A stretch of 64,000 nucleotides of DNA, taken from Planctomycetia bacterium. Lineage in GTDB: Bacteria; Planctomycetota; Planctomycetia; Pirellulales; PNKZ01. The notes under the pieces are model-generated. The model worked only from the letters and a program-made list of their open reading frames with translations, was not told the DNA's origin and searched no databases. Position 1 is the first letter of the stretch. Every line of letters begins with the position of its first letter. The translations under genes and the position numbers were made by a program. The stretch covers positions 81,690 through 145,689 of the forward strand of contig JAIOPP010000057.1 of the NCBI GenBank assembly GCA_021413845.1, in the 5' to 3' direction. Positions 391-30,652 of the stretch are shown in pieces.

Positions 391-3300
391 TCATCGAGCA
401 CCAAGCGCGCTGCGAGTGTCGAATACGCTGTCGAGTTCGTCGACGTCATGCATGCGCGGGTTGCGACGTCGCTCGTATTCCAATACCGGCAATGGATCGA
501 AGGCCTTCCAGGTCGGCAACGATGATAGCAAGATCGAGGTCAACGATCCGGCCTGAAGCGACCAGACGAGATAGCCGACCGTCAAGGTAGCGGTGATCCC
601 CGCCGTGCCGACGACCAAACACTCCACGGTCGTGTAGGCTTGCTCTTCGATCGTCGCTACGATCGTCTGCCAAGGAATCGACGCCTCTTGCGACGACCAA
701 CCTTCGGAAGTCTTAGCCGCCACCGGCCCTTTCGTCAGCAGCGCGGTTCGCACTCCGTGAGTCGCCTTACTGCCCGCGCTCGAGACACTGCTCCAATCGA
801 CGTTCTCACACCGATCTGCATAGAGCGTGTCGTCATCGATCGATTCGGAGGGGAGTACCGGTGGTCTCTCGTCGTGTGTTATTTTTGACTCTCGATCAAG
901 TAACGATGCCGTGTCGAAGCCTGACATTTGACGTACGTTCTCCAACATGCCGAGCAGCGTCGGGCGTGGAAGAGAAATCGTCGGCCAAAATACAACGTCA
1001 TGCGATGATGTGCCGGGAATCAACGCGACTTCCGAACGGCCGACGCTCGAGCCACCTGCGCCGTGATCATCCATAGTTTCCGGCTGTGGACTCGGGAATA
1101 CTGCCGCTTGCGAGATCGCAATCGTTGTCTGAATGGTTTGCGAACTCATGCCGTCGCGCGGTTCGTCGGTCACAACCAGAGAGACTTCGCCGTTGGTCGC
1201 AATTCCCCGAAAGCGCAGTCCGGCAAGCGCCGCATTGACATTCGTAAGCGTGCCGCTGAACGCCAGTAACGCGCCGCTCGAGCCCGCGCCGTCGACGAAA
1301 GTGAGCCCCGCCGTTTGCGCAAGCGCGACGGTGCCGTTGTGAGCCGTCAAAGTTACGGTCAATCTCGGATCTTCGGCATACGCATCTTCGATGGTGATTC
1401 CGCTTCCCGTAGTCGGAGAAAAAACGGCGAGATAGTTATCGGCACTAAGCGCGATCGGATTTCGCAATTGAATTCGATCCGCGGTGGGTTGCACCACCAC
1501 AGCGACTTGCGCCGCGGCAGTCCGTGCCCCGCCTCCTCCATTTAGCCCGAGATCGTCGACCGACACTGCAAAGCCTGTCGATCCGCGATAACTCTCGTTC
1601 GGGCTAAACTGAAGGCCATCGAGCGCAGAGTTCAAATTGCTCAAGCTGCCGCGAACGGTGATGGCGTCGTCGCTCGTGCCGTCACCGACGACGAAGGTGA
1701 GCCCGGCAGTTTGCGCCAACGTCAATGTGCCGTGGTTCGCGTTGAGCGTAAGCTCGATCGAGCCGGAGCCCGCATCGTTATCGCCGACGACCATGGCCCG
1801 ACCGTTCGCCGTCGAGAAAATCAGCCCGGTTTGAAACGCCGTCGTTTGCGCACCCGGCAGCGTCAAACTCGGCGCGTCGTTCACGGAATCGACGGCTAGA
1901 CTTAGCGTAGCGGTCGTGATTTGTGCCGGCCCCGACCCATTATGCCCAAGATCATCGACCGAGACCTGCAACTGCGCAGCGCCATAGAAGTTCGCCGTAG
2001 GATGGAATGCCGCTCCGTTGAGCGCCGCATTCATTGCAGCGGAAGTGCCTTGAAATATCATCAAGGCATCGTCGGTTCCGTCGCCAACCAAGAACGTCAG
2101 CCCACTGGTTCCGCTCAGCGAGATCGAACCGTTCGTTCCGGCAAGAGTCATTTGCAGCGGCAGCCCGGCAGCGTCGGGATCGGCAACCGCGATTGCATTC
2201 CCTCCCGCCGTGGAAAAGACCAATGCCGTGTCTTCGTTCGTCGCCTGCGCACTCGGCAGCGTGATGATCGCGGGCTCGTTCACGTTCGTTACCGTGACGA
2301 AAATCGTTTGCGTCGTGAAGAACGTCCCATCCGACGCACGGACGATTACCTGATAAACGTCGTCCCCATCCGAATCGGCCGGGGCTTCGAAATCGGGAGC
2401 GACGACGAAGCTTAGCGCACCGGTCGCTCCGTCGATCATAAAGCGTCCGGCATCCGTTCCGCCGCTGATCGAATAGTTGAGCGAGGGGGTCGGCAAATCG
2501 GCATCGGATGCCGCCACCGTAGTTACCGAAGTCGTATTTTCCGCCGCGCTCACGTTTGCTGATGCCCCGCCACCATTGCTCGTCATCGTAGGCGTGTGAT
2601 CGTTTACCGGAGTGACCGTGATCGAGATGTTGCTCGAAGTCGTTTGTGGGCCCCCTGTGCCGCTATAGCCGAGATCGTTGCTTACGACTCCGAGCGTTGC
2701 AGTACCGGCGAAATCGAGCGTCGGCATGAACGTGAGCCCATTCAAGGCCGCATTAATATCGACGATCATGCCCGTGAACGTCATCACGGCATCGGCCGTT
2801 CCGTCGCCGGTCGAGAACGTAAGACCGGATGTGCTGCCGAGCGTCGTCGTTCCGGAAGTTGTCGTAAGGGTCACTCGAATCGGATTCGACGCCGCTCCGG
2901 CATCGGCGATGCCGATCCCATTTCCCATGCCGCTACTAAACACGAGCGGCGTGTCTTCAAGCGTGGCTTGCGTTCCCGGCAGCGTGTGGATCGGAGCTAC
3001 GTTCGTTCCATCGATGAATCGTTGCAGAAATACTCCGTCGGCGTCACCGGCGCCGTTGCCGCTCCAAGCGACGACGAAGCCGTTCGAGCTTTGCATTGCA
3101 ACCGATGGCGACTGTTGCGAACCCGTTATCGTCCGATTGACGAGAGTTTCCGATGAGATGGCAGTCCCTGTCGCGTCGAATTGACGAAAGTAGACGCCGT
3201 CGCCGCCGGCGGCATCCTGATTAGTGCTTGTCCATGCGACGACGAAACTCCCCGAAGCATCCATCGCGATGCGCGATTCACGTTGGTCTCCCGCCGTTGT

Positions 3301-4332
3301 GACGTTCATCGCCGTCTCACCACCGACCTTTGCTCCCGTTGAATCGAACCGTTGTCCGTAGACTCCGTATCCGCTTCCGTCTTGAGCTTGGCTCGACCAT
3401 GTGACGAGGAAGTTTCCGGCACCATCCGTAGCAACCGCCGCTTCGGTCTGATTTCCTGCGGTGGTCGTATTAATTCGGAACTCGGCACCTAAAGGGTTGC
3501 CGGCGGCATCGAAGCGCCGACCGTACACGCCGGTGCCTGAGCCGTCCTGTGCAGCGCTCGTCCAAACGACGATGAAGTTTCCCGCAGCGTCGTAAGCAAC
3601 CGTCGAGAGATTCTGATCGCCGGACATCGCTGTATTGACGAGAAACGCAAGCCCATCCGGGGAACCGTTCGCATGGAACTGTCGCGCGAACACGGCATCG
3701 CCGCTGCCGTCGCCGAAAGCTCTCGTCCACGAAATCGTGAAGTCGCCCGCCGCATTGATCGCGATCGAAGGATCATGGAAGTCTTCCAACAGAGCCAGCG
3801 CGACTTGCTGTTCCGGACCGATCCGGCTTCCCGCGGCATCGTAGCGCTGAAAGTAGATCCCTTCGCCGAGAATCGTGATTCCAAGCACATCGAGGATCGG
3901 GCCCGACCATGCGACGACGAATGTCCCATCGGCCGCCTTGGCAACGGCAGCTTCCGTCTGATCGCCGAGAATCGTCGTGTTTACTTGAAACTCAGCCCCT
4001 TGTTTGTTGCCCGTCGCATCGAACCGTTGTGCGTAGATCCCCGTTCCGGTTCCATCCTGGCTATCGCTTGCCCAAGCGACGACGAAGGCCCCCGTGGGAT
4101 CCGCGGCGACGGCTTGCTGCGTTTCGTTTTGAATCGATTGCACGGACGTCGTCTCCGTGTTCACGAGAACCTCGCCGCCGGCCGGAGTCGCGCTAAACAA
4201 AATGCGATCTTCGTACTCGACGCAATCGAGCCTGCGGATTGTCCCCGGCATCGCGCGAAGAGGCGTTGCACGATCGTGCCGCAGCATTTTGCGCAGTCGA
4301 CTGCCGATGCGGTGAATGATGTGCGAACCCAT
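391..4332 (-). CDS. Giant secreted/surface protein with beta-propeller-like tandem repeats, adhesin-type modules, a cadherin-like domain and a C-terminal hydrophobic anchor
   Basis: 1313-aa ORF. N-terminus has ...RRLDCVEYEDRILFSATP (LEDR-x-L-x-SA type motif). aa ~52-440 hold seven tandem ~50-aa repeats (FVVAW/FIVVW/FLVTW ... DGSG.G(V/I)Y.(Q/R)RFD..G). aa ~447-1075 hold four related ~120-130-aa modules (LPG.QAT.EDT.LVFS ... LNGL.F.P ... VND(A/H)(P/T)). A cadherin-like unit lies at aa ~585-685 (DADLPTPSLNYSISGGTDAGRFMIDGATGALSF...VTNVNEP). Hydrophobic stretch at aa ~1225-1275. Confidence 0.85.
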   Translation of the reverse strand: MGSHIIHRIGSRLRKMLRHDRATPLRAMPGTIRRLDCVEYEDRILFSATPAGGEVLVNTETTSVQSIQNETQQAVAADPTGAFVVAWASDSQDGTGTGIYAQRFDATGNKQGAEFQVNTTILGDQTEAAVAKAADGTFVVAWSGPILDVLGITILGEGIYFQRYDAAGSRIGPEQQVALALLEDFHDPSIAINAAGDFTISWTRAFGDGSGDAVFARQFHANGSPDGLAFLVNTAMSGDQNLSTVAYDAAGNFIVVWTSAAQDGSGTGVYGRRFDAAGNPLGAEFRINTTTAGNQTEAAVATDGAGNFLVTWSSQAQDGSGYGVYGQRFDSTGAKVGGETAMNVTTAGDQRESRIAMDASGSFVVAWTSTNQDAAGGDGVYFRQFDATGTAISSETLVNRTITGSQQSPSVAMQSSNGFVVAWSGNGAGDADGVFLQRFIDGTNVAPIHTLPGTQATLEDTPLVFSSGMGNGIGIADAGAASNPIRVTLTTTSGTTTLGSTSGLTFSTGDGTADAVMTFTGMIVDINAALNGLTFMPTLDFAGTATLGVVSNDLGYSGTGGPQTTSSNISITVTPVNDHTPTMTSNGGGASANVSAAENTTSVTTVAASDADLPTPSLNYSISGGTDAGRFMIDGATGALSFVVAPDFEAPADSDGDDVYQVIVRASDGTFFTTQTIFVTVTNVNEPAIITLPSAQATNEDTALVFSTAGGNAIAVADPDAAGLPLQMTLAGTNGSISLSGTSGLTFLVGDGTDDALMIFQGTSAAMNAALNGAAFHPTANFYGAAQLQVSVDDLGHNGSGPAQITTATLSLAVDSVNDAPSLTLPGAQTTAFQTGLIFSTANGRAMVVGDNDAGSGSIELTLNANHGTLTLAQTAGLTFVVGDGTSDDAITVRGSLSNLNSALDGLQFSPNESYRGSTGFAVSVDDLGLNGGGGARTAAAQVAVVVQPTADRIQLRNPIALSADNYLAVFSPTTGSGITIEDAYAEDPRLTVTLTAHNGTVALAQTAGLTFVDGAGSSGALLAFSGTLTNVNAALAGLRFRGIATNGEVSLVVTDEPRDGMSSQTIQTTIAISQAAVFPSPQPETMDDHGAGGSSVGRSEVALIPGTSSHDVVFWPTISLPRPTLLGMLENVRQMSGFDTASLLDRESKITHDERPPVLPSESIDDDTLYADRCENVDWSSVSSAGSKATHGVRTALLTKGPVAAKTSEGWSSQEASIPWQTIVATIEEQAYTTVECLVVGTAGITATLTVGYLVWSLQAGSLTSILLSSLPTWKAFDPLPVLEYERRRNPRMHDVDELDSVFDTRSALGAR
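1108..2994 (-). repeat. Coding repeats: four ~120-130-codon adhesin-type modules (one cadherin-like insert) inside the giant protein gene
   Basis: Recurring blocks: PLVFSSGMGNGIGIADAG...LNGLTFMP...VNDHTP; ALVFSTAGGNAIAVADPD...LNGAAFHP...VNDAPS; LIFSTANGRAMVVGDND...LDGLQFSP; LAVFSPTTGSGITIEDAY...LAGLRFRG. Coordinates are approximate. Confidence 0.65.
3013..4179 (-). repeat. Coding tandem repeats: about 7 copies of a ~50-codon unit inside the giant protein gene
   Basis: Protein-level periodicity read directly from the translation (units ending FVVAWASD, FVVAWSGP, FTISWTRA, FIVVWTSA, FLVTWSSQ, FVVAWTST, FVVAWSGN). Coordinates are approximate. Confidence 0.7.
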
Positions 4333-4607: not shown

Positions 4608-6392
4608 ATGCCCTATCTCTTCGCAATTAGAACGATTCAACTGCTCTGCTTTTGCCTCGCGACTGCGAGCGAAGTGCGGGTCGTTGCGCAGTCGATTCGG
4701 CCCCTCCCGCCGATCTCGGCGGAGACGAGTGTCGAAACATTGCAACCTGTTCTTCCAGCCGAGGACTTCAAGCTCGCTCTCGTCGACAACGAGCTCTGGT
4801 GGGACACGGCGCTACTCTCGTCGCTCAACGCCACGGAGTGCCCGCTAGCCATCGGGCTCGAAGCGGTCGTCAATCGCGTGCTGATGTTCTCTCCCCACGT
4901 GCGGATCGTTGCCGACGAGCCAGTGATTCGCGGCGCTCAAGTCACCGATGCCGCGTCGCGCTTCGATCCTCGCGCGTTTCTCGACTCGAAGTTCACCGAC
5001 ACGAGCGATCCGGTCGGCAATTTACTTACCACCGGCGGGGCGAGCCGCTACCTCAACCAAAACTTCGTTTCGTCGGGCGGCTTGCGACAAACGTTCGCTT
5101 CCGGCGCCAAGGCCGAGGTCGCACAGAAATTCGGTTACGAAGACAGCAACTCGCGATTCTTCATTCCACCGAACCAAGGCACCTCGCGCATCACGCTTAC
5201 GATCACGCAACCCCTCTTGAACGGCTCGGGCAAAGCCTACAACCTCAGCTCGATCTACTTAGCGGAGCTCGGCGTCGGCGCAGCCGTCGGTCGGATGCAA
5301 AAGGAATTGCAAGACATCATCATCGAATCGCATCGCGCCTACTGGGATCTGCGCGTGCAACGTGCCGCATTGCTGCAAAGAGCGCGCCTCAAGCAACAAG
5401 CGATCGATGTCGTCGCCGAATTGGAGGCGCGCGTCGATTTCGACGTCGTGCAGAGCCAGATCGTGCGAGCGAGAGCAGCCGCCGCTACGCGCGAGGCCGC
5501 GGTGATCCGTTTCGGAACCAACGTCGCCAACGCCGCGACACGGCTGCGTGCACTGTTGAACGATCCGAACCTACTGAATCCTCCGCAAGAGTTGATTCCG
5601 TTCGATCGCCCGTGGTCGGAGCCTGCTGAGCCGAATGTCGCGCAATCGCTGACGGACGCTTTGCAATATCGACCGGAAATTCAACAAGCATTTATCGAGG
5701 TCCGGGCGGCGAGCATTCAAGCCGATGTTTCGCAAAACGAACTCATGCCGCTCCTTAATCTCGTCTTGGGAACCTACGTTGCCGGACTTCAAGGCAATTC
5801 CGATGTCGGCCAAGCCTGGGTCGATCAATTCAGCGTCGGCCGTCCGACCTATTGGACCGGACTACAATTCGAGTACCCGCTGTTCAATCGAGGCGCTAAT
5901 GCGCGCCTAACGCAGCGCCGCGTGGAACTTCGCCAAGCGACAAACCGCTTGCAAGCCGCCATGCTCAATATACGAAGCGAAACCGAGATCGCGGTGCGAG
6001 AGGTATCGACGCTCTACCGCGAGATGCTCGCGAAACGTGATGCGATTCGAGCCAACGCCGCCGAGATCGACTATCTCACATCGCGACGTAGCCTCATGAT
6101 CGGCGACCCGCAAACGGCCGGCGTCGTGCTCGACGATCTCTTATCGGCCCAAGAACGACGAGCCAACGCTGAGTTCGACTTCGTCGCGGTTCAGGCGGCC
6201 TACAACGTCTCGCTCGTGAACTTGAATCGAGCAACCGGCACCTTACTGCAAACGCAACAAGTCCGCATCGACGACGCTTGCCAAGGGGGCGTCCCGACGT
6301 TGCAAGTCCGCTTGGATAAATCGGAAGCTCACCTTCCTATTGCGGCCCAACTCGGCGACGGCGTGCCCGCCGGCAACGAGGTGCCACGATGA
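4608..6392 (+). CDS. TolC-like outer membrane efflux protein (OEP family)
   Basis: 594-aa ORF with an N-terminal signal-like hydrophobic segment (LLCFCLATASEV). Two OEP-type helical repeats (LTDALQYRPEIQQAFIEVRAASIQADV...; LLSAQERRANAEFDFVAVQAAYNVSLVNLNRATG). Its stop overlaps the next start (ATGA at 6389-6392). Confidence 0.8.
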   Translation: MPYLFAIRTIQLLCFCLATASEVRVVAQSIRPLPPISAETSVETLQPVLPAEDFKLALVDNELWWDTALLSSLNATECPLAIGLEAVVNRVLMFSPHVRIVADEPVIRGAQVTDAASRFDPRAFLDSKFTDTSDPVGNLLTTGGASRYLNQNFVSSGGLRQTFASGAKAEVAQKFGYEDSNSRFFIPPNQGTSRITLTITQPLLNGSGKAYNLSSIYLAELGVGAAVGRMQKELQDIIIESHRAYWDLRVQRAALLQRARLKQQAIDVVAELEARVDFDVVQSQIVRARAAAATREAAVIRFGTNVANAATRLRALLNDPNLLNPPQELIPFDRPWSEPAEPNVAQSLTDALQYRPEIQQAFIEVRAASIQADVSQNELMPLLNLVLGTYVAGLQGNSDVGQAWVDQFSVGRPTYWTGLQFEYPLFNRGANARLTQRRVELRQATNRLQAAMLNIRSETEIAVREVSTLYREMLAKRDAIRANAAEIDYLTSRRSLMIGDPQTAGVVLDDLLSAQERRANAEFDFVAVQAAYNVSLVNLNRATGTLLQTQQVRIDDACQGGVPTLQVRLDKSEAHLPIAAQLGDGVPAGNEVPR

Positions 6393-8179
6393 ACCCGATG
6401 CTGTCATCGACTTCGATGCCTTCGACTTGGTGGAACCGCACGTTTCAGCGACGTCGCCGGCCCGCTTTCGATGTTGCGGAAACACTTCACTCGTTTTCGT
6501 GTGCGGTCGAGCGACACCTCGGCATCACGCCGTTCGATTCCCAGTTGCACGCCGCTACGTTGCTTGCACAAGGTCGTGCCGTCGAGATGCGCACCGGCGA
6601 AGGGAAGACTCTCGCCGTCGCCGCAGCAGCTGCCGCCCGTGCCATTGCGGGCCGAAGCGTGCATGTTGCGACCGTCAACCGCTACCTTGCCGACCGAGAT
6701 TTCCATACGTTCGCGCCGGTCTTGCGTAGCATGGGCTTGAGCGTCGGACTAGTCGACGGCAGAGCGACTTCGGAGATCAAACGGCAAGCCTACGGCTCGC
6801 AAATCGTCTACGCGACGGGCTACGATCTGGGGTTCGACTATCTGCGCGATCAGCAACGTCGTGCGCGGCAAAACTCGTCGCGACTCGGCGATGAGCTTGT
6901 GCGTCGTTTATCCGGGATCGACAACACGCACGATATGCCGATGCCGCTCGACTTCGTCATTATCGACGAAGCCGATTCGGTGTTGCTCGACGAAGCGTCC
7001 GTTCCGCTATTGCTCGCCGAATCGACGAACCAAAATGTCAAAGATGCCGCAGCCACCGAATCGGCCGCACAGTCTTGTCGGGAGCTTAATCTTGGGCGAG
7101 ATTATCTCGTAGATTCGCATAGTCGCGTCATCTCATTAACGATGAATGGCGCCGATACGATCGAACACCGGCTGAGACCACGGCCCGAGCTTTTGCTCCT
7201 CCGGCCGTGGCGGCAGTATGTCGAACATGCGCTTATCGCGCATCTCCTGTTGCAACGCGATGTGGACTATATCGTCTTCGACAATCGGATTCACCTAGTC
7301 GACACGACGACGGGTCGCATCTTCGACGACCGACGCTGGTCCGAGGGACTGCAGCAAGCCGTTGAATGGAAGGAACGTCTCCCGTTTTCGCAGCCGACGA
7401 TCGGATCTGCGAGTATTACGCGTGCCTGTTTTTTTCGCTCTTATCGCACGATGGCGGGAATTTCCGGGACTCTCATCGAAGCGGCCGGTGAACTTCGCTC
7501 GACGTTCGGACTCACGGTCGAAGCGATCCCACCGCGACTTCCTTCGCGTCTTATCGAACTTCCGACTCGCTACTTCGCAACTCCGGAAGCGCGACGTCGC
7601 GCCGTGGCATTAGAGACGGAGGCTATGCAACGACTCGGTCGGCCAGTGCTCGTGGGCTGTCGTACGATCGCGGAAAGCGCCGCAATTGCCGAAGAATTCA
7701 AACGACGACGCATTTCGCATCGGGTACTCGATGGCCGGCAAACCGAAGCGGAAGCGGCGATCATCGCCGAAGCCGGCCGGAGCGGTATTGTTACCATCGC
7801 GACGAACATGGCCGGTCGCGGGACCGATATTCGTCTTGGTAAGAGTGCGAAGGATTGCGGCGGCCTTCATGTCATCGGCATCGAGCGCAACGATTCGGCG
7901 CGCATCGATCGGCAACTACTAGGTCGTGCCGGAAGACAAGGAGATCCCGGCTCGGGCCGCTACTTCGTCGCCGCTTCCGATTCGTTGATCGCAAATGATC
8001 CGAAGCTGATCGCTTCGATGGTTCAATCCGCCGAAGCAAACGGCGAGGCTCACGGCAACTTCGAGCAGCAATGGACCGAATGCAGGCGCGTCGTCGAGCT
8101 CGATGCTCTCAAGCGACGAGCATCTATAGAACAACGGTATTTACGACGAGCGGACTCGACGACCATTCTGCTCGGATAA
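6389..8179 (+). CDS. Truncated SecA-family ATPase (NBD1-PPXD-NBD2 only, 596 aa)
   Basis: SecA signature blocks: FDSQLHAATLLAQGRAVEMRTGEGKTL (Walker A at 6596-6610), SVHVATVNRYLADRD, IVYATGYDLGFDYLRD, IIDEADSVLLDEASVPLLL, DVDYIVFDNRIHLVDTTTGRI...RRWSEGLQQAVEWKE, MAGISGTL, IATNMAGRGTDIRLG, GGLHVIGIERNDSARIDRQLLGRAGRQGDPGSGRYF. The protein ends ~60 aa after the last block, where canonical SecA continues for ~300 aa. Confidence 0.85.
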   Translation: MNPMLSSTSMPSTWWNRTFQRRRRPAFDVAETLHSFSCAVERHLGITPFDSQLHAATLLAQGRAVEMRTGEGKTLAVAAAAAARAIAGRSVHVATVNRYLADRDFHTFAPVLRSMGLSVGLVDGRATSEIKRQAYGSQIVYATGYDLGFDYLRDQQRRARQNSSRLGDELVRRLSGIDNTHDMPMPLDFVIIDEADSVLLDEASVPLLLAESTNQNVKDAAATESAAQSCRELNLGRDYLVDSHSRVISLTMNGADTIEHRLRPRPELLLLRPWRQYVEHALIAHLLLQRDVDYIVFDNRIHLVDTTTGRIFDDRRWSEGLQQAVEWKERLPFSQPTIGSASITRACFFRSYRTMAGISGTLIEAAGELRSTFGLTVEAIPPRLPSRLIELPTRYFATPEARRRAVALETEAMQRLGRPVLVGCRTIAESAAIAEEFKRRRISHRVLDGRQTEAEAAIIAEAGRSGIVTIATNMAGRGTDIRLGKSAKDCGGLHVIGIERNDSARIDRQLLGRAGRQGDPGSGRYFVAASDSLIANDPKLIASMVQSAEANGEAHGNFEQQWTECRRVVELDALKRRASIEQRYLRRADSTTILLG

Positions 8180-8195
8180 GAGGTTTCGTTCAATC

Positions 8196-9065
8196 ATGAT
8201 GAGACTAAGGAAACAAAGCATGTCGCTACGATTCTTCGACACGATTCTCTTGCTACAGTTGGTTGTAGCAGCGCAGGCTCATGCCGAGACGTTCGAGAGT
8301 TTTACGGAACCTTCACGAACGATCGACGTCGCTCCCGCCGAGACGGGAGTCGTCGCCCGCGTCGAAGTTCGCGAGGGAGATCGTGTCCGCAAAGGTCAAG
8401 TACTGGCATCGCTCGACAAGGAAGTTCTGTTGATCGCTCGCGAAATCGCCCAAGCGTCGGTCGATGCGACGGGCCGCAAGGATGCGGCGCGAGCCGAAGC
8501 GGAATTGCGCAAGACTCGACTCGACAAGATTCGTACGCTGCGCAGCTCAGGCCATGCCGCCTCCGAAGAAACGCAACGGGCGGAGATGGAGCACACAGCG
8601 GCAAAGGGACAGCATCAGTCGCTCGAAGAGCAGGCGATCGTCGACCGGCTCGAAGTCCGGAAGATCGACTCGATGATCGAACGGCGACTTGTTCGGAGCC
8701 CGATCGACGGCATCGTCACGCACATTCACTATGATCACGGAGAGTTCGTCACTCCCATCGCGCCGACCATCGTTACGGTCGTACAGCTCGATCCCCTTCG
8801 TGCCGTATTCAATCTACCGCAGTCGGCCGCTCGCGCTTTGAAGCCCGATGCGACGGTTGTGCTGAATTTTCCCGAGGAAGAAGAAGGAGTTCCGGGGAAA
8901 GTGGAATTCATCGCGCCGGTAATCGATGCGGATAGCGGCACCGTGCGTGTGAAAGTCCTTATTGATAACATCGATCAGACACGCCTGGCTGGTCGACGTT
9001 GCACGCTCCGTCTCGACGAAGTGCCGGCGCAACAACCGACCGCACCGCAAATCGCGAATCCTTAA
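8196..9065 (+). CDS. HlyD-family membrane fusion / periplasmic adaptor protein
   Basis: 289 aa with a signal peptide (LLLQLVVAAQAHA). Lipoyl-like hairpin halves (VARVEVREGDRVRKGQVLASLD ... SPIDGIVTHIHYDHGEFV), a central coiled coil, and a beta-barrel segment (GTVRVKVLIDN). 16-nt gap to the upstream gene. Confidence 0.8.
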   Translation: MMRLRKQSMSLRFFDTILLLQLVVAAQAHAETFESFTEPSRTIDVAPAETGVVARVEVREGDRVRKGQVLASLDKEVLLIAREIAQASVDATGRKDAARAEAELRKTRLDKIRTLRSSGHAASEETQRAEMEHTAAKGQHQSLEEQAIVDRLEVRKIDSMIERRLVRSPIDGIVTHIHYDHGEFVTPIAPTIVTVVQLDPLRAVFNLPQSAARALKPDATVVLNFPEEEEGVPGKVEFIAPVIDADSGTVRVKVLIDNIDQTRLAGRRCTLRLDEVPAQQPTAPQIANP

Positions 9066-9081
9066 ACAGACTCAGAACATC

Positions 9082-10461
9082 ATGATTCCGACTTTTATTC
9101 GTTCTGATCGACGCCACGATTCGGCAGTTCAGCAACCGAACGACGACTTACGCCGGAGCCACGACACTTCAGCCGCGCTTTTGGAGCTTGCGAAGCAGTT
9201 CGTTATCGCCACGGACGATGAAACGGCTTGCCGATGCTTGGCGACAGGCTTGAAAGAGCTGGGGAATTTAGAATCCGTAGCGATCGGTTTAATTGCGGGC
9301 TCCCGATGTAGGCTCCGCGCTATCTCCGGCATAGCGACGATCGAGTCGAATGCCCCGAACGTGCGAACTTGGGAAGCGGCACTTACCGAATGCGCTACAA
9401 CAGCCAACTTCAGGCTGGATTCGGCAACCGAGGCAATGACTTCCGTCGACGGAACTCAGGAACGGCCTTGGTGCCTTCCTCTGAAATCCGGCGATGGCCG
9501 TGTTTTCGGTGCGTGTGCGATAGTACTTCCAACGGCACTCGACGACACAGCAAATCGATCGTACCTACGAACGGTCGTCGACGTGCTCGGTCCACTCTTC
9601 GCTACGGCGATGCAGGCGCGCCGCTCTTCGGCGTTGGTTGTCAGCTTGAAACGAATCGGCAATGCCATTTCCGGCCGTCGACGCTGGGCCATCGTCGTTT
9701 GTGCAATGATCGCGACGATGATCACTCCCTTGCCTTTCACCGTCCGTTGCGATTGCGAGCTACAACCCAAGCAACAACGTGTCGTTGCGGCCCCTTTCAA
9801 TGCCGTTTGGCGGCAAAGCCACGTTCGACCGGGCGATTTCGTCACGGAAGGTCAACCGCTCGGTCTTCTCGACTCGTCCGAGTTGCTGAGAGAACTTGCT
9901 GCGGCGACGGCCGATCGAGATCGAGCCGCTAAATCGAGCGACGTGAATGCCGCTGCCGGAAAAACGGCTGCCGCACAAATCGATCGTTTGGAAGTGCGAC
10001 GTGTCGAGGAACGAAGGTCTCTACTCATGCGCCGTCTGGAAAATATCGAATTGAAGAGTCCGATTACGGGAATCGTGATGAGTGGCGAATGGGAACGCGC
10101 GGAAGGGGCCCCGATCAAGCAAGGAACCGTGCTCTATGAGATCGCGCCGCTAGATCGAATCGTCGTCGAGACATTCGTTGCCGAAGGCGAGATCGAACGC
10201 CTGCGGCCGGGCTCCTCGGCTACCGTGGTACTAGATGCTCGGCCTTACGAGAACTATACCGGTACGGTCGAGCGCATCTATCCCCGAGCGGAGATTCACG
10301 ACGACGCGAACGTTTTTATCATCGAAATCACACTGGATAATCCCGACCGCGTCCTGCGACCCGGCATGAAAGGACACGTTTACGTGGAGACGGAAACTCG
10401 TTCGATAGCGAAGCTATTCACCGATCGCTTTTGGCCGACATATGCTTGGATGAGTTGGTAA
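9082..10461 (+). CDS. HlyD-family adaptor with a GAF-like cytoplasmic N-domain and one TM helix
   Basis: Start moved to ATG 9082 because the track start at 8962 overlaps the upstream gene. The N-terminal ~215 aa has a GAF-like pattern (tentative). TM helix WAIVVCAMIATMITPLPF. HlyD motifs follow: RPGDFVTEGQPLGLLD, a coiled coil, SPITGIVMSGEWERAEGAPIKQGTVLYEIAP, RPGMKGHVYVE. Confidence 0.7.
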   Translation: MIPTFIRSDRRHDSAVQQPNDDLRRSHDTSAALLELAKQFVIATDDETACRCLATGLKELGNLESVAIGLIAGSRCRLRAISGIATIESNAPNVRTWEAALTECATTANFRLDSATEAMTSVDGTQERPWCLPLKSGDGRVFGACAIVLPTALDDTANRSYLRTVVDVLGPLFATAMQARRSSALVVSLKRIGNAISGRRRWAIVVCAMIATMITPLPFTVRCDCELQPKQQRVVAAPFNAVWRQSHVRPGDFVTEGQPLGLLDSSELLRELAAATADRDRAAKSSDVNAAAGKTAAAQIDRLEVRRVEERRSLLMRRLENIELKSPITGIVMSGEWERAEGAPIKQGTVLYEIAPLDRIVVETFVAEGEIERLRPGSSATVVLDARPYENYTGTVERIYPRAEIHDDANVFIIEITLDNPDRVLRPGMKGHVYVETETRSIAKLFTDRFWPTYAWMSW

Positions 10462-10462
10462 C

Positions 10463-12664
10463 GTGAGTATGAAAATCGGTTCGCCCTCATCTCCTGCGAC
10501 GCAAACTCACATTCTTCATCCGGAACGGCTCGTCGTCGCCGCTCGTCGCGACTTAAGGGTTTCGACTCGACACGATCGCGGCGAGCTTTTCTACTTCGTC
10601 GAAGATCCGTTACGAAACAAATTCTTCCGCTTAGGAAAAGCGGAGCATGCGCTATTCTTAGCACTGGACGGAACGCGAACGCTGGCCGAAGCCGCGGCCC
10701 ACACGGCATCGGCGTCGGGCTCACAAGCTCTCACGCAAGACGAAGCAGTCTTGCTCGGGGAGTGGCTTGTACGATCAGGCTTGGCATCGAGCGACATCGG
10801 TCTTGCCTCACGTAGTCCGACGATGTCACAAGTCCCGACAAGACATGACCGGTGGAATCTTTGGTCGTTTCGGATCACGCTGGGAAGTCCCGACCGTGCG
10901 CTGGAAACCCTGGACCCGTTCGGTCGATTTCTCTTCGGGCGAACATTTCTCGTGCTCTGGTTCGCGATTCTCGCAGCGGCGCTGCTGCAAGCGTTAACGG
11001 CTTGGCCGATGCTTGCGAAAAACTCGCCCATCGACTGGGGTTGGCAAGGTGCTTTGTCGCTCTTCGCGGCTTGGTGCGGCCTCAAGATTTTGCATGAACT
11101 AGCACACGCGATCGCTTGTCGACGGTTCGGCGGCAACGTCGGCAACGTGGGACTCGCATTCGTGCTGGGAATGCCGTCGCCGTTCGTCGACGTATCGACG
11201 ATCTGCCGCGTGCCCGACAAGTGGAAGCGGATCGTCGTCTCATTGGCAGGGATTTACATCGAGATTTTCGTAGCGGCGCTGGCGATGATCGCCTGGAGTG
11301 CTTTTGAAGATCCCTTAGTAAGGCAAGGAGCACTCGCCGTCGTCTGGGCTGCAGGAATCGGATCGGTGATTTTCAACCTGAATCCGCTCATGCGATTCGA
11401 CGGGTACTTCGCACTCTCGGATGCCATGGAGATGCCTAACCTATCCGCCGTCGGCCAAGAGGAATCATGGCGGCTTCTACGACGTTTCTTGTTCGGTATC
11501 GACGAAGCGGAGATCTCCGCCAAGGGACGTCGCCCCGCCTGGGTTGCCTGGTACGGCATCGCGGCGATGCTGTGGCGCACGTTCGTTCTCGGCTCGTTGT
11601 TGCTACTAGCGATCGCGAAGCTAGGAGCATTCGGAACCATTTTTATTTCGATCCCTCTATTTCTCGCTTGGTTAGCAAAGCGCCGAACTCTCCGCCGTTC
11701 CCTAATCCGAGGTGGAGCAAACGTCGGTAGGAATCGACAACGGCAAGCCGCGACCTGCACGGCACTCGGGCTGCTCTCGGCGATCTTGTTCTACTGCTTA
11801 GATCCAAGCACGAAGGAACTCGCAGCGGTGGTCGACTATGAACCGCTCGAAGTCGTGCGAGCGGGCACAGCCGGATTCGTTCGACAAGTCTTCGTATGTG
11901 ATGGCGAGCAAGTCTTCGCGGGACGTAAGATCGCGGAATTAGACAACGCCGAATTGCTTGCCGAGATCGGTCAAGTCGAACTCGCGATCGAACAATCCAC
12001 GATTCGCTCGCGCATGCATCGGCAAGCTAAAACAACCTCGAAAGAGCAAACGGAGCGATTGCAACGCCAAGTCCTCGAAACGGAGTTGCGGGAGCTTCAT
12101 CACCAAAGAGAAGGCCTGACCATCGTCGCCGCAACGGACGGAACGATCGTCTCGCGAGGCATCGATCGCTATGTGGGGCTACGGTTGGAAAAAGGGGATG
12201 AGATCGCCTCGATCGCCGGCGACTCAGCGAAAACGCTTAAGATTGCCGTGCCGCAACGCTTGGTGACGGCGATCGCGAATGCCGAGGATCGCACTGCGGA
12301 CGTCCTGATTCACGGACATCGAAAACCGGTATCGATTCGTTTGGCGACGTGCGACCCTCAAGCCTCGACGCGCTTGATCCACCCGGCGATGAGCGTGGAA
12401 CATGGTGGCATGCTGAGCATACGCCGGCGGGAAGCGACGCCGGACGAAGCCGGAGAAGGCAAATCAAGGAACCGCCGCGATACGACGATCGCGGAAACAG
12501 TAGAACCTTGTTTTCAGATGACGGCGCGAGCGGATGAAGAAACGCTGCGAGATGTGGCCGCCGGCCGTACGGCAATCGTGAAGGTTCGCATTCCATGGCG
12601 AAGCGCGCTCCACGATTATTGGTCGCGCTCCTCGGCTTGGCTGCATCATCCGCAAGCGGAATGA
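10463..12664 (+). CDS. Fusion protein: PqqD/RRE-like N-domain + M50 (site-2 protease family) membrane metalloprotease core + C-terminal HlyD-like domain
   Basis: 733 aa, starting at GTG 10463 or ATG 10469, 1 nt after the upstream stop. aa ~20-110 read ...LFYFVEDPLRNKFFRLGKAEHALFLALDGTRTLAEAA...LGEWLVRSGLA (PqqD-like, tentative). The polytopic core carries HELAH (11093-11107) and NLNPLMRFDGYF (M50 motifs). The C-terminal ~290 aa has a coiled coil (AELDNAELLAEIGQVELAIEQ) plus beta segments (ATDGTIVSRG), as in HlyD. Confidence 0.75.
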   Translation: MSMKIGSPSSPATQTHILHPERLVVAARRDLRVSTRHDRGELFYFVEDPLRNKFFRLGKAEHALFLALDGTRTLAEAAAHTASASGSQALTQDEAVLLGEWLVRSGLASSDIGLASRSPTMSQVPTRHDRWNLWSFRITLGSPDRALETLDPFGRFLFGRTFLVLWFAILAAALLQALTAWPMLAKNSPIDWGWQGALSLFAAWCGLKILHELAHAIACRRFGGNVGNVGLAFVLGMPSPFVDVSTICRVPDKWKRIVVSLAGIYIEIFVAALAMIAWSAFEDPLVRQGALAVVWAAGIGSVIFNLNPLMRFDGYFALSDAMEMPNLSAVGQEESWRLLRRFLFGIDEAEISAKGRRPAWVAWYGIAAMLWRTFVLGSLLLLAIAKLGAFGTIFISIPLFLAWLAKRRTLRRSLIRGGANVGRNRQRQAATCTALGLLSAILFYCLDPSTKELAAVVDYEPLEVVRAGTAGFVRQVFVCDGEQVFAGRKIAELDNAELLAEIGQVELAIEQSTIRSRMHRQAKTTSKEQTERLQRQVLETELRELHHQREGLTIVAATDGTIVSRGIDRYVGLRLEKGDEIASIAGDSAKTLKIAVPQRLVTAIANAEDRTADVLIHGHRKPVSIRLATCDPQASTRLIHPAMSVEHGGMLSIRRREATPDEAGEGKSRNRRDTTIAETVEPCFQMTARADEETLRDVAAGRTAIVKVRIPWRSALHDYWSRSSAWLHHPQAE

Positions 12665-26472: not shown

Positions 26473-28228
26473 TCGCTTCGTACGAACCTTTGCCTGCGGT
26501 GCCGTGGCGCTTGTCGTCGGCGGCTGCGCGGTCGGCGGCGTGCCGCTTTTTAAGAAGTCGGAGAAGACCGAAGAGGCGCTTCCCGACGTGCATCCGATTC
26601 GCAAAGAGCGGGCATCGTTGGCAGCGAAGAAGTTCGACGTCGAACGGAACGCCGCCGAATATCAAGCCGCCGCGGCTGAATGGCGCCAGGGGAATTTCAA
26701 AGCTTGCCGCGACGGTATCGACAAGATTCTGTATCGCGATCCGGCGCATCGCGACTCTCTCATTCTGCTCGCCGAGTTGGAACTCGAGCATGACCAGCCG
26801 GAACTCGCCGTCGACATCTTACGGCGCGGAATTGCTGCGCACCCGAAAGATGGAGAAATGAGCTACAAGCTCGGCCTTGCGCTGGAATCGGCCGGAGAAA
26901 GTTCGGAAGCGCTTCATCATTTCCACATGGCGGTTCAACTCGCCCCGCAAGAAAAAAAATTCGCCGATGTCTTCAAACATGCGGAAGAGCACGCCAAACA
27001 ATCAGCCGCTCAGGATGGCGAACAAGTCGCCGACGGCAAAGTAGCCCCGGCGACGCCGGACGACAACGAGACTTCCGACAATTCCGGTAGCGAGCCGACG
27101 ATTCAGCTGACCGCCAACCAATCACCGCTGGAGGTCGATCCGCAAAGCTCGACAAAACCATCGTCGAGCGTGTCGTCGCCGATCGAGTTGGCCGTTGCCG
27201 ACTGGGAAGCGGGACGCAAAGAAGCTTGCGCTAAAACCGTCGGCGAAATCCTCGCCCACGATCCCAAGCACATCGATGCGAACATCTTGCAAGTCGAACT
27301 CGATCTCGACGCCGGCCGCAGCGACGAGGCCCGAGCGCGCATCGAACGACTCGCCATTCGCAATCCGCAAAATGCCCAAGTCCGACGAGCCTGCGCGTTA
27401 GCCTATGAAGCGTTGGGCGACGCGGCACGTGCCGCCACATCGTTTGCAGCGGCGGAAACTCTGGAACTCGGCGCGATCGAAGACGCTCCCAGGGTCGCGA
27501 TCTCGGCTCGTGCAAAACGAATCAAGCCGACTTCCATCGAGCCCGCTTCCATCAAAGTGGTATCGATCTCCGAGACCTTACAGCAAGCGACGCCGATGCC
27601 GACGGAATCGTTGCAATCGGAATCATCGACCATCGAACCGCCGAATCTCCTGGCCGCCGACACCCTCGCACCGGCGCTGCCGATCTTGGGTCTGGAAGTA
27701 GATGAGCCCGAAGCGCCCGTGAAAGCGACCGTTTCCACGGTATCAACGGTTCGCAACTCGGTCGTCGATCGGTTAACCAACACCGGTGCGGTGCCGCGCC
27801 GGAGCGCTCAGCAATTACTCGACAAGGGAGAAGTATTTCTTAAGGCCGGACGCTTCGACGACGCCCAACGAGAACTCTCCGCGGCGATTTCCGCGAATTC
27901 TTGCGTAGTTAAAACCGCATCGGCCGCGGCCCTAGCACCGTTAAGATACGAACAATCGGCGCTCGCGCTCGATCTTGCGCGGGAGGGTGTTAAGAAATTC
28001 CCCGATTCTGCGGGTCTACACCGGATTGAGGGGACCGCGGCGCTCCGCTTGGGGCGGCACCTGGAGGCGGAGGCGGCTTTGCGACAATCGTTGTCTTTGG
28101 ACAACTCGCAAGCACTGACCTATTTTTTGCTGGGCTCCGTCTACGACCGCCTGGGAAACCAAGAGGCGGCGGACCGGCATTTACGCCAAGCGGCGCGACT
28201 TGATCGTCGATACGCTGTGCGAAAATAG
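26456..28228 (+). CDS. TPR-repeat lipoprotein (possible pilotin/PilF-like accessory)
   Basis: Start set at ATG 26456. Lipobox LVVGGC. TPR-like repeats at both ends (AELELEHDQPELAVDILRRGIAAHPKDGEMSYKLGLALESAGESSEALHHFHMAVQLAP; LGSVYDRLGNQEAADRHLRQAARLD). Confidence 0.75.
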   Translation: MKSANNRFVRTFACGAVALVVGGCAVGGVPLFKKSEKTEEALPDVHPIRKERASLAAKKFDVERNAAEYQAAAAEWRQGNFKACRDGIDKILYRDPAHRDSLILLAELELEHDQPELAVDILRRGIAAHPKDGEMSYKLGLALESAGESSEALHHFHMAVQLAPQEKKFADVFKHAEEHAKQSAAQDGEQVADGKVAPATPDDNETSDNSGSEPTIQLTANQSPLEVDPQSSTKPSSSVSSPIELAVADWEAGRKEACAKTVGEILAHDPKHIDANILQVELDLDAGRSDEARARIERLAIRNPQNAQVRRACALAYEALGDAARAATSFAAAETLELGAIEDAPRVAISARAKRIKPTSIEPASIKVVSISETLQQATPMPTESLQSESSTIEPPNLLAADTLAPALPILGLEVDEPEAPVKATVSTVSTVRNSVVDRLTNTGAVPRRSAQQLLDKGEVFLKAGRFDDAQRELSAAISANSCVVKTASAAALAPLRYEQSALALDLAREGVKKFPDSAGLHRIEGTAALRLGRHLEAEAALRQSLSLDNSQALTYFLLGSVYDRLGNQEAADRHLRQAARLDRRYAVRK

Positions 28229-28369
28229 TCGCGACGGAGATTCCCTGCCGAACTCGAAGCGCTTGCTTCCGAAGCTGGGCGATGAACCCGAGGGGTTGAT
28301 CGCTTAAGACTTGGGAACGGAGCGAAACGAGCGGCGGTTTCCAGGGAACCTTCACTACCGTCGTCGACT

Positions 28370-29842: not shown

Positions 29843-29881
29843 TTTCCGTTTGCCGAAGCGATCTTCAAGAGGAGATAAGTC

Positions 29882-30585: not shown

Positions 30586-30652
30586 CCCCCGATATCGTTC
30601 AGACGCGCCTCGCAACCACGTTCGCACGCTCCACGCTCGCACGGCATAACCT

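Follow-up and report, generated by a model that had tools for sequence, protein, structure and literature searches.

The closest described relative of the locus studied here is the "secondary SecA_DEAD" module related to type I secretion systems (T1SS), reported by Kamneva, Poudel & Ward (2015, PLoS One; PMC4452313), who called its role "completely unknown". Its genes encode a truncated SecA_DEAD protein, a Peptidase_M50/HlyD protein, a HlyD/biotin-lipoyl protein, a GAF-HlyD protein and sometimes an OEP, and its hosts include Rhodopirellula baltica (RB142/RB146). Fusions of a RiPP recognition element (RRE) with a site-2 protease (S2P) are known from daptide biosynthesis, as described in the daptide paper. 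The LEPR-XLL class of giant proteins includes the Chlorochromatium symbiosis proteins, which are said to be without a known transport signal; in the searchable literature we found this motif mentioned in passing only.

Here we analyzed a stretch of 64,000 nucleotides of planctomycetal DNA, referred to as the window, which originates from a freshwater metagenome. Its five-gene operon, in the order TolC>SecA-like>HlyD_A>HlyD_B>fusion (Table 1), is a member of the 2015 module, a relationship that the first-pass annotation had missed: it has the same gene set in the same phyla, with all five genes at 4608-12664 and no ABC transporter. The 2015 study did not recognize an RRE/PqqD domain, proposed neither substrate nor signal and made no link to LEPR-XLL. 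The presence of an RRE in the module and its two-way link to LEPR-XLL-type giant proteins appear to be new. Literature searches on PqqD+M50+HlyD, SecA+HlyD+site-2 protease and SecA-like+MFP+TolC returned nothing relevant, and the fusion architecture is mentioned neither in the RRE-Finder paper nor in the 2021 Chem Rev T1SS review. We propose, with a probability of roughly 0.55, that the fusion is a leader-recognizing, leader-cleaving adaptor subunit of an ABC-independent, type-I-like exporter for LEPR-XLL-tagged large repeat/adhesin-type proteins. As part of this explanation, the cargo in the window is most likely the divergent neighbor ORF 391-4332.

Table 1. Features of the operon, the fusion protein and the neighboring gene, in positions of the window.
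Feature	Position	Strand	Evidence
Candidate substrate, 1,313-aa repeat/cadherin-type protein	391..4332	-	motif HMM, repeats, divergent arrangement elsewhere
C-terminal hydrophobic anchor with conserved GYLVW…PTW..FDPLP motif	463..621	-	hydropathy
LEPR-XLL-like leader motif, aa 34-53, ...RRLDCVEYEDRILFSATPAGG	4174..4233	-	translation; motif HMM 17.6 bits
TolC-like outer-membrane factor	4608..6392	+	Pfam OEP 7.4e-21; TIGR01844 3.6e-21
Truncated SecA-like ATPase, 596 aa	6389..8179	+	SecA_DEAD 6.8e-64, SecA_PP_bind 2.1e-23, P-loop_SecA (Pfam)
HlyD_A, short secreted periplasmic adaptor	8196..9065	+	TIGR01730 2.3e-40; Pfam HlyD_D23, Biotin_lipoyl_2
HlyD_B, adaptor with cytoplasmic GAF-like N-domain, one TM	9079..10461	+	Pfam HlyD_D23 1.5e-23
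RRE–site-2-protease–HlyD fusion gene	10463..12664	+	ORF, translation, >120 full-length homologues, AF2 pLDDT 91
RRE/PqqD-fold domain, about aa 22-114, predicted cytoplasmic	10532..10810	+	AF2, Foldseek, family profile, Pfam on homologues
Site-2 protease (M50) membrane core, about aa 133-414	10865..11710	+	motifs, NCBIfam, AF2
HExxH motif (HELAH, H209/E210/H213, ATG numbering)	11093-11107	+	translation
NxxPxxxxDG motif, NLNPLMRFDGYF	11375-11404	+	translation
Seventh TM helix (aa 423-444), K/R-rich cytoplasmic loop before	11735..11800	+	AF2 helix, hydropathy, charges
Periplasmic adaptor (HlyD/MFP-type) domain, aa 445-731	11801..12661	+	Foldseek, family profile

The fusion ORF is real, and every string quoted from it in the first-pass annotation was found in the translation. 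It encodes 733 aa from a GTG or 731 aa from an alternative ATG at 10469, leaving 1 nt or 7 nt, respectively, to the stop of the upstream gene. The three-part fusion read there from the sequence alone was borne out, with an RRE/PqqD-fold N-domain, an S2P core and a HlyD-type adaptor that follows one more transmembrane (TM) helix. The AF2 model of the whole protein (pTM 0.81) consists of a β3-α3 N-domain at residues 23-102, a polytopic core of helices (158-414) that includes a re-entrant β-hairpin (227-240), and a last TM helix (423-443) leading into a 287-aa lipoyl/α-hairpin/β-barrel domain. This architecture is far beyond chance and not a one-off, because an exhaustive profile search returned about 10,000 protein clusters with it (10,028 cluster representatives, E<=1e-30), the best 150 of which are all about 700-750 aa long and match the profile over its full length without a break. 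A genome scan confirmed at least 569 fusion loci in species-representative genomes. Single-sequence Pfam searches with the window protein found M50 and HlyD only below threshold and PqqD not at all; they are insufficient for this fusion, and family-level profiles and structure were therefore needed. Automatic annotation by NCBI at times names the homologues "PqqD family peptide modification chaperone"; "efflux RND transporter periplasmic adaptor subunit" also occurs as an automatic label.

The N-terminal domain has the RRE fold, as judged from AF2 and Foldseek, a check that the first-pass annotation had called for. The model of residues 20-140 (pLDDT 85) contains strands 11-17, 20-27 and 32-36 and helices 38-46, 53-67 and 71-83, that is, the winged-helix-like arrangement of a three-stranded antiparallel sheet followed by three helices that characterizes RREs. 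Its best Foldseek matches in the PDB are the leader-bound RREs of TfuB1 (6jx3_B), TbiB1 (5v1v/5v1u), CteB (5why) and LynD (4v1t). Their probabilities are high (0.8-1.0), but the E-values are weak (0.02-0.6); the TM (target) values are 0.59-0.67 for the stand-alone RREs TfuB1/TbiB1 and 0.09-0.15 for CteB/LynD, large enzymes of which the RRE makes up a single domain. While the window N-domain sequence alone gave zero Pfam matches at E<0.01, similarity to PqqD is found at the family level: the family profile matched PqqD 3g2b end to end (E=5.5e-5) and TfuB1 (0.026), and 12 of 60 homologous N-domains matched Pfam PqqD (PF05402) on their own, the best at 3.9e-9. Leader-peptide binding by the domain is inferred, without binding data.

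Both M50 motifs are intact and lie where they had first been placed. In the AF2 model HELAH 209-213 sits inside helix 192-219 and N303…D311-G312 at the end of helix 282-303, which meets the S2P pattern of an HExxH in a TM helix and an NxxPxxxxDG (LDG) in a later one. Compared with NCBIfam, the core matched daptide_HExxH (E=3e-47) and YydH/LiaK (8.8e-7), and residues 45-400 can be aligned to the daptide protease model, in which RRE and S2P are arranged in the same way. The window protein misses the gathering score of Pfam M50 (PF02163; 17.3 bits vs a cut-off of 27.2), a family that is precomputed on many fusion homologues. Adaptor matches dominate the full-length Foldseek/PDB lists and mask the core there. 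Regarding topology, the model and the charges lead us to infer a 6-TM S2P core with both ends in the cytoplasm and a seventh TM helix that would carry the adaptor out, the loop ahead of which has 9 K/R and 0 D/E. Residues 358-414 are one continuous helix in the AF2 model, and both the TM5/TM6 hairpin and the count of seven helices are inferred. The arrangement is compatible with RRE and HExxH on the same side of the membrane, a point on which the original interpretation could have failed.

That the best curated matches are RiPP leader peptidases, and that RiPP pathways are the best-known setting of RRE domains, raises the idea of a RiPP-type system in which the RRE–S2P part cuts the leader off a small precursor, as for MpaP in daptides and YydH in epipeptides, and the HlyD domain and TolC export the peptide. 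The chaperone name given by NCBI to some homologues points the same way. Nevertheless, we consider this quite improbable, given a score far under the equivalog cut-off (161 vs 300) and the outcome of clustering 5,984 flanking ORFs from 80 loci, in which neither a recurrent modifying enzyme nor a conserved short ORF was found beside the cassette. The clusters obtained were giant proteins, regulators and DUF3467, a recurrent neighbor whose profile found no relative in the PDB. One small-ORF cluster from Phycisphaerae was considered as a precursor and rejected, its conservation being explained by a DegT-type aminotransferase gene that overlaps it in antisense orientation.

Cleavage by the S2P core is likewise inferred, as no cleavage has been measured. 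Kamneva et al. had put forward a mainly structural M50 core, an inner-membrane pore or scaffold in place of the ABC transporter for which proteolysis would be dispensable (PMC4452313), and the fusion is indeed the only polytopic membrane protein of the operon. However, the zinc-ligand and catalytic residues H209, E210, H213 and D311, together with N303 and P306, are invariant in an alignment of 107 full-length homologues. Since identity in this alignment drops to about 20%, their invariance argues for selection on catalysis. A dispensable protease therefore seems improbable to us, although a structural role of the core is compatible with the export of tagged proteins proposed above and does not exclude it.

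The C-terminal domain is an adaptor by architecture, with the TM helix 423-443, hairpin helices 494-519 and 523-548 and flanking β domains. Foldseek matched it to MexA, MacA, EmrA and AcrA (E 5e-10 to 1e-7), and the family profile matched an RND adaptor, MacA, EmrA, LipC and HlyD in the PDB with E down to 6e-21; the curated cut-offs are missed (TIGR01730 28.3 vs 94.9; HlyD_3, PF13437, 16.8 vs 22.2). Two further adaptors are encoded upstream in genes that overlap or nearly abut, the fusion being the last of the five. HlyD_B, whose ORF opens at TTG 8962 and likely starts at ATG 9079, has its TM helix at aa 204-222, and its GAF-like part is supported only by alignment of residues 53-180 with the Pfam-GAF region of a Nitrospira orthologue. 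The stop of the TolC-like gene overlaps the start of the SecA-like gene. The product of the latter comprises NBD1, the preprotein-binding domain and NBD2 without scaffold, wing and two-helix finger; it aligns only to residues 59/72-546 of B. subtilis SecA, with intact Walker A and DEAD motifs. No component of the operon is obviously an inner-membrane channel.

The surroundings of homologues are secretion-type neighborhoods and not the unrelated functions that would have spoken against the first interpretation. HlyD_B immediately precedes the fusion in 73 of 79 loci, and within 80 species-level loci HlyD_A is present in 55, the SecA-like gene in 41 and TolC in 18. A version of the cassette on an E. 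coli plasmid has no adjacent SecA-like gene; a cassette version is present in 24 of 5,426 complete E. coli genomes. Genes for ABC, RND and MFS pumps are absent from the operon, and ABC-like ORFs are rare near related loci (2/80 cassette loci and 1/120 loci fetched by the leader motif). Classical type I secretion, with a HlyB-type ABC transporter as inner-membrane component, is thus not what the operon encodes. The lack of any pump gene also bears on a small-molecule tripartite efflux pump or a signaling device based on regulated intramembrane proteolysis, either of them unrelated to the large neighbor. The automatic efflux labels of homologues and the GAF-type sensor domain on HlyD_B would suit such functions, which we regard as barely plausible: there is no anti-sigma/ECF sigma pair nearby, and neither function would account for the tight linkage of the cassette with LEPR-type giant genes.

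This linkage is observed in both directions. Starting from the cassette, 22 of 80 loci contain a long ORF with the N-terminal motif, and 19 of these 22 ORFs lie less than 700 bp away (median gap 470 bp). The motif regex matched 20 times in 9,685 ORFs, 19 of them N-terminally in long ORFs, and reversed-sequence controls gave 0 matches. NCBIfam LEPR-8K scores above its cut-off in loci L025 and L074 and in Methylosinus. On Pontibrevibacter and Pseudosulfitobacter plasmids the gene that immediately precedes the cassette (31.8 and 38.7 kb) carries the independent PGAP annotation "LEPR-XLL domain-containing protein", and a giant gene of 24-27 kb also precedes the cassette in Methylosinus and Alisedimentitalea; the annotated N-terminus of the Alisedimentitalea protein has no clear motif. 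In the reverse test, a DNA pattern for EALEPRxLLSA was the sole criterion for retrieving 120 metagenome loci, and in 22 of them the upstream flank contains cassette genes, which score up to 884 bits with the family HMM (13 of 53 when only flanks of >=2.5 kb are counted). About three quarters of the loci have no LEPR-type gene inside the available flanks. The N-terminus of the giant protein on the E. coli plasmid (ALESRQLFDGA) resembles the motif by eye, but its motif HMM score of 3.6 bits is not significant, and it counts for little here.

In another reading the module only processes the giant proteins: the fusion would trim or quality-control the N-termini of LEPR-type proteins, or tether these proteins, and their export would fall to another machine such as Sec or a classical ABC-type T1SS that acts on a C-terminal RTX signal. 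Alternatively, the module would export something else that acts on them. Some LEPR-type proteins end in RTX repeats (L072 and a Vibrio protein), which are typical of classical T1SS cargo with a C-terminal signal (PMC10868602). Moreover, the module is without an evident inner-membrane channel, and the SecA-like gene is missing from half of the fetched loci as well as from the E. coli plasmid version. Still, the protease shares its operon with three adaptors, a TolC and a SecA-type motor whose preprotein-binding domain is intact, these genes often run in the same direction as the giant gene, and ABC-like ORFs are almost never adjacent. We therefore judge processing without export unlikely, though it deserves to be kept in mind.

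In the window itself, the gene 275 bp from the operon and divergently transcribed offers a candidate cargo with cadherin and tandem-95 repeats. Near its N-terminus it carries a LEPR-XLL-like motif, VEYEDRILFSATP. Against a leader-motif HMM derived from 20 other loci, this ORF gave the only significant match among the ORFs of the window (E=9e-4), the next having E=7.0. A search for shared leader motifs had been named in the first-pass annotation, which found no convincing precursor-peptide gene and left the substrate unknown. It had missed this candidate adjoining the operon, a protein of 1,313 aa and not a small precursor peptide. Its motif (YEDRILFSA) has diverged, and the curated NF012209 model reported nothing for the ORF at E<0.01. 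A giant-type neighbor divergent to the cassette recurs in about 9 Pirellulaceae/Planctomycetota loci, and the C-terminal GYLVW…PTW..FDPLP motif of ORF 391-4332 recurs in the giant proteins next to the cassette in L022 and L023; used as a query, the final 109 aa of this ORF matched merely two fragments. The N-terminal tag of ORF 391-4332 is probably read and cut by the fusion during export.

For such an exporter we envisage that the cytoplasmic RRE would bind the leader, which is Arg-rich and of the form LE[DEP]R-x-L-x-[SD]A, by β-strand addition and that the adjacent S2P active site, facing the cytoplasmic leaflet, would remove it. The truncated SecA-like ATPase, having kept motor and preprotein clamp, might then drive the unfolded polypeptide N-terminus first, and the space between the inner-membrane assembly and the TolC-like channel could be spanned by three HlyD-type adaptors, namely HlyD_A, GAF-HlyD_B and the C-terminal part of the fusion. 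Export, the direction of threading and the identity of the inner-membrane conduit are inferred, just as binding and cleavage of the leader are. The first-pass interpretation is supported, because fold, topology and homologue context, the three grounds on which it could have been refuted, did not refute it; recognition, cleavage and hand-over remain inferences. More tentatively, and with somewhat less than even confidence, the module may be a distinct secretion pathway rather than a variant T1SS: the LEPR-XLL leader would be the sorting signal, the RRE its receptor and the S2P its "signal peptidase", and a SecA-derived motor without the SecY-docking parts would push giant polypeptides via an S2P–adaptor inner-membrane assembly directly into TolC. 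If true, it would put both an RRE and an S2P to work in protein secretion for the first time.

RRE domains are regarded as hallmarks of small-peptide (RiPP) biosynthesis, whereas here one appears in a putative trans-envelope exporter and is tied to proteins of 1,300 to >12,000 residues. The proposed export function gives the orphan 2015 module a concrete and testable role and the LEPR-XLL giant proteins a candidate machinery. With about 10,000 sequence clusters in many phyla the secretion route would be widespread, its function being inferred, and plasmids of the Roseobacter group and Methylosinus as well as E. coli genomes provide tractable carriers. Further culturable candidates are Methylobacterium extorquens AM1 (META1p2399-2402), Ruegeria pomeroyi (SPO2714-2718) and Rhodopirellula baltica (RB142-146), and the E. 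coli version is of the pKL53-L plasmid type, that of Methylosinus on pMSC49a.

Among known systems, the daptide leader peptidase resembles the fusion protein, with RRE and S2P in the same order in one chain, homologous residues 45-400 (E=3e-47) and leader removal at the cytoplasmic face, which for the fusion is inferred. In contrast to it, the window protein scores below the family cut-off (NF041824, 161.5 vs 300 bits), adds the seventh TM helix and the periplasmic adaptor domain, and belongs to diderm hosts with TolC; it is presumed to act on a protein of 1,300 to >12,000 aa rather than on a short peptide, and neither daptide genes (MpaB/C/D/M) nor ELExMEAP precursors were found in the operon or the other scanned ORFs of the window. 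With NF012209 ("LEPR-XLL / LEPR-8K"), a model for an N-terminal LEPRxLL signature of ~24 aa on large repetitive proteins, the link is through the cassette neighbors, which in many loci are above its cut-off or so annotated, whereas the version in the window neighbor has diverged and falls below the curated model. Similar to SpoIVFB-type S2Ps, the fusion has a 6-TM core with ends facing the cytoplasm and an extra soluble domain that would gate a cytoplasm-derived substrate; however, this domain is an N-terminal RRE and not a C-terminal CBS domain, and the chain runs on beyond the core to end in a periplasmic adaptor. Finally, the module shares with PCATs and HlyB–HlyD–TolC systems the fusion of leader recognition and cleavage to an export machine, HlyD-type adaptors, a TolC-type exit duct and, as presumed here, giant repeat/RTX adhesin-like cargo. 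It differs in having a SecA-derived ATPase and no ABC transporter, an intramembrane zinc S2P instead of a C39 cysteine peptidase, an N-terminal LEPR-XLL-type signal in place of a C-terminal or double-glycine leader, and three different adaptor proteins.

The final gene of a tightly packed set of five encodes a real open reading frame whose translation is as quoted in the first-pass annotation. It opens with a GTG one base past the stop of the upstream gene; an alternative ATG lies at 10469, from which residues are numbered here. A three-part architecture had been proposed, with a PqqD/RRE-like N-domain, a site-2 protease (S2P) carrying both motifs and a HlyD-type adaptor, and profiles and models support it, with HELAH at the nucleotides originally assigned. 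A profile of 60 homologous N-domains matched PqqD (3g2b) over its entire length (E=5.5e-5) and the lasso-peptide RRE TfuB1 at 0.026, and 12 of the 60 individually matched Pfam PqqD. The AF2 model of residues 20-140 (pLDDT 85) has the order beta3-alpha3. Its closest PDB folds are the RREs of TfuB1, TbiB1, CteB and LynD, in structures solved with the leader peptides, at high probabilities but E-values of just 0.02-0.6.

The evidence shows a catalytically intact S2P, equipped with an RRE and joined to a periplasmic adaptor. Among 107 aligned full-length homologues, with identity down to about 20%, H209, E210, H213, N303, P306 and D311 never vary. On the fusion sequence alone, Pfam M50 and HlyD_3 remain sub-threshold at 17 bits each, and the NCBIfam model for the daptide intramembrane metalloprotease covers residues 45-400 (E=3e-47; 161 bits, under its 300-bit equivalog cut-off), with YydH/LiaK at 8.8e-7. 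The full-length model (pLDDT 91, pTM 0.81) comprises a helical core in the membrane, in which a re-entrant hairpin comes after the HExxH helix, a final TM helix (423-443) and the C-terminal domain, which resembles MexA, MacA, EmrA and AcrA by fold (E about 1e-9) and PDB adaptors including HlyD and LipC by profile (down to 6e-21). Because the loop ahead of the last TM holds nine K/R and no D/E, and the daptide model's match ends just before it, the most economical topology is a six-TM core whose two ends lie on the cytoplasmic side together with the RRE and the active site, and a seventh TM that places the adaptor domain in the periplasm. For TM5/TM6 the hairpin is an inference, since AF2 draws 358-414 as one long helix.

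The architecture is a common one: exhaustive searching with a profile returned 10,028 cluster representatives (E<=1e-30), and the best 150 are all about 700-750 aa and matched end to end. Scanning a single genome for each species confirmed at least 569 loci; Planctomycetota, Verrucomicrobiota, several proteobacterial classes, Nitrospira, Myxococcota, Bacteroidota and others are among the matches listed. A more distant homologue (about 26% identity) on an Azospirillum plasmid is solitary, without adaptor, SecA-like or TolC neighbours; cassette membership is therefore not universal in the family.

The evidence further shows that the operon is a TolC/SecA-like/adaptor set without an ABC transporter, followed by a convergent uvrB. 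Its ATPase aligns to B. subtilis SecA only over residues about 59/72-546, a stretch made up of both nucleotide-binding domains (NBD1 and NBD2) and the preprotein-binding domain. Its Walker A and DEAD motifs are intact, but it lacks the scaffold, the wing and the two-helix finger. In the second adaptor, the N-domain aligns to the part of a Nitrospira orthologue that Pfam assigns to GAF. Across 80 fetched loci the fusion occurs in 79, and in 73 of these the gene for the GAF-like adaptor directly precedes it. That adaptor is present in 76 loci, the short adaptor in 55, the SecA-like gene in 41 and TolC in 18, and the window's gene order was found again in eight.

Several observations accompany the cassette. 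In RefSeq the truncated ATPase goes under "prepilin peptidase" or "DEAD/DEAH box helicase"; Walker A, DEAD and motif VI signatures of SecA are present in these sequences. Plasmid records also use "SecA", which sequence inspection confirms as the SecA-like protein, and name the fusion "site-2 protease family protein", "PqqD family peptide modification chaperone" or "HlyD family…". A DUF3467 protein of ~110 aa (PF11950, 3e-21) lies just 5' of the GAF-like adaptor in 10 of the 80 loci and on two annotated plasmids; the window has none, and a profile search against the PDB found no relative. A SapC-family protein is inserted into the cassette at two loci, and in Chlorobium chlorochromatii "sapC" (Cag_662) directly precedes a LEPRxLL giant gene (2026 preprint). 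Elsewhere, the window's type II secretion/type IV pilus-like set (24019-32404) and a 1,324-aa FtsK/SpoIIIE-family protein look ordinary.

Features in the window and at related loci (L-numbers, fetched loci; window coordinates in nucleotides)
Feature	Location	Strand	Remark
TolC-like	4608-6392	+	window operon
SecA-like ATPase, 596 aa	6389-8179	+	window operon
Short HlyD adaptor	8196-9065	+	window operon
HlyD adaptor, cytoplasmic N-domain and one TM	9079-10461	+	window operon
Fusion	10463-12664	+	window operon
HELAH	residues 209-213; 11093-11107	+	translation
NLNPLMRFDG	residues 303-312	+	translation
Candidate substrate, 1,313 aa	391-4332	−	motif HMM
LEPR-XLL-like motif	residues 34-53 of candidate	−	…RRLDCVEYEDRILFSATP…; motif HMM
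Candidate's C-terminal anchor	463-621	−	
Secretin	24019-26472		
TPR protein	26375-28228		
T2SSE ATPase	30653-32404		
FtsK/SpoIIIE-family protein	46423-50397		
DUF3467 examples	L072:7557-7898; L032:3658-4020; L082:12770-13051; L085:9657-9977; others		PF11950
SapC-family insertions	L081:17176-17997; L053:9006-9875		
SecA-like ATPases under other RefSeq names	L081:17990-20014; L085:14135-16051; L082:17046-19031		
Giants sharing the anchor	L022:3-4694; L023:5186-12847		planctomycete
Solitary fusion homologue	L084 (pAB510f 146450-148684)		Azospirillum sp. B510
Giant gene, 38.7 kb	Pseudosulfitobacter plasmid		LEPR-XLL domain-containing protein
Giant gene, 31.8 kb	Pontibrevibacter plasmid		LEPR-XLL domain-containing protein
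Giant gene, 26.5 kb	Methylosinus plasmid		LamG-like; N-terminus 29.8 bits on NF012209
Giant gene, 24.4 kb	Alisedimentitalea plasmid		calcium-binding protein

When all flanking ORFs of the 80 loci were clustered, the commonest additional family consisted of very large proteins, many running past the contig end, with up to >3,000 aa visible, whose N-termini share L-E-[DEP]-R-[VIL]-[LM]-x-[SD]-A. Among 9,685 ORFs the strict regex found 20 matches, 19 of them near the N-terminus of long ORFs; the reversed control sequences gave none. A motif-bearing giant gene is present at 22 of the 80 loci, within 700 bp of the cassette at 19 of these, and several giants exceed the cut-off of NF012209 (NCBIfam LEPR-XLL). 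Judged by their domains (cadherin, Big_9, He_PIG, LamG, DUF4347, sometimes RTX repeats), these proteins are adhesin-like.

Independent checks agree that operon and giants with an N-terminal LEPR-XLL-type tag are tightly linked in both directions. On four plasmids the giant gene lies directly upstream of the cassette and co-directional. In the reverse test, 120 metagenome loci were fetched solely by a degenerate DNA pattern for EALEPRxLLSA; it lay <=130 codons from the ORF start in 119, with >=300 codons or the contig end following in 102. Cassette genes, scoring up to 884 bits on family HMMs, occupied the upstream flank in 22 of the 120 (13 of 53 where the flank was >=2.5 kb); just one locus had an ABC-like ORF. 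Positions left unspecified were conserved too: an Arg-rich run (−7 to −4), F/L at −3, L/F at −1 and D at +11. The Arg-rich run and F/L-x-L/F recall the Tat RRxFLK n-region; no hydrophobic h-region follows in these loci.

A related set occurs in 24 of 5,426 complete E. coli genomes, mostly plasmid-borne (L086, L210; NZ_CP081687.1, NZ_CP030920.1), in the order 13.4-kb Ig-like gene, TolC, two adaptors, fusion; mobile-element debris comes next, with no adjoining SecA-like gene. The giant's N-terminus (ALESRQLFDGA plus a DUF4347-like region) is weakly tag-like. The fusion gene is likewise present on plasmids of Citrobacter and Kosakonia.

Over the 64-kb window, a motif HMM built without the window sequence gave a single significant ORF (E=9e-4; runner-up E=7.0), divergent from the TolC-like gene at 275 bp, a layout seen at about nine further planctomycete loci. 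The first-pass annotation had found no convincing precursor peptide here; it had missed this candidate. The candidate ends in a hydrophobic anchor with the motif GY[LV][VI]W..[QR][AG]G … P[TA]W..FDPLP[VI], also found in two more cassette-adjacent giants and matched by no curated model; it may be a retention or sorting element.

The likeliest mechanism, which we hold only slightly above even odds (roughly 0.55), is that the RRE would bind the tag, the S2P would cut it and the operon would export the tagged giants. The recognise, cleave and hand-over logic suggested earlier holds, with binding, cleavage and export all inferred and none demonstrated. The main alternative, that the fusion merely processes the giants while other machinery exports them, gains from the RTX repeats in some tagged giants and from the lack of any evident inner-membrane channel. 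That the system serves a small-peptide RiPP pathway is unlikely, because neither modifying enzymes nor conserved short precursors lie beside the cassette. Export by the operon is compatible with data from Chlorochromatium, where two LEPRxLL giants are said to have no known transport signals and a horizontally acquired secA (Cag_1676) is co-expressed with them (2026 preprint); that Cag_1676 is a truncated paralogue is unconfirmed. Otherwise the literature searched mentions LEPR-XLL only in passing.

As a gene family the fusion is not new. An N-terminal RRE joined to a site-2 protease is already known from daptides (daptide paper), and Kamneva, Poudel and Ward (2015; PMC4452313) described the same module, listing R. 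baltica RB142/RB146 among its examples; no other paper combining SecA_DEAD with HlyD was found in the literature searched. In their proposal the SecA_DEAD protein takes the place of the ABC ATPase and the M50 protein is a possible pore; they called the biological role "completely unknown" and mentioned no PqqD/RRE domain and no substrate. What appears new relative to that module is the RRE assignment and the connection with a defined N-terminal tag that giant proteins carry, both directly testable.
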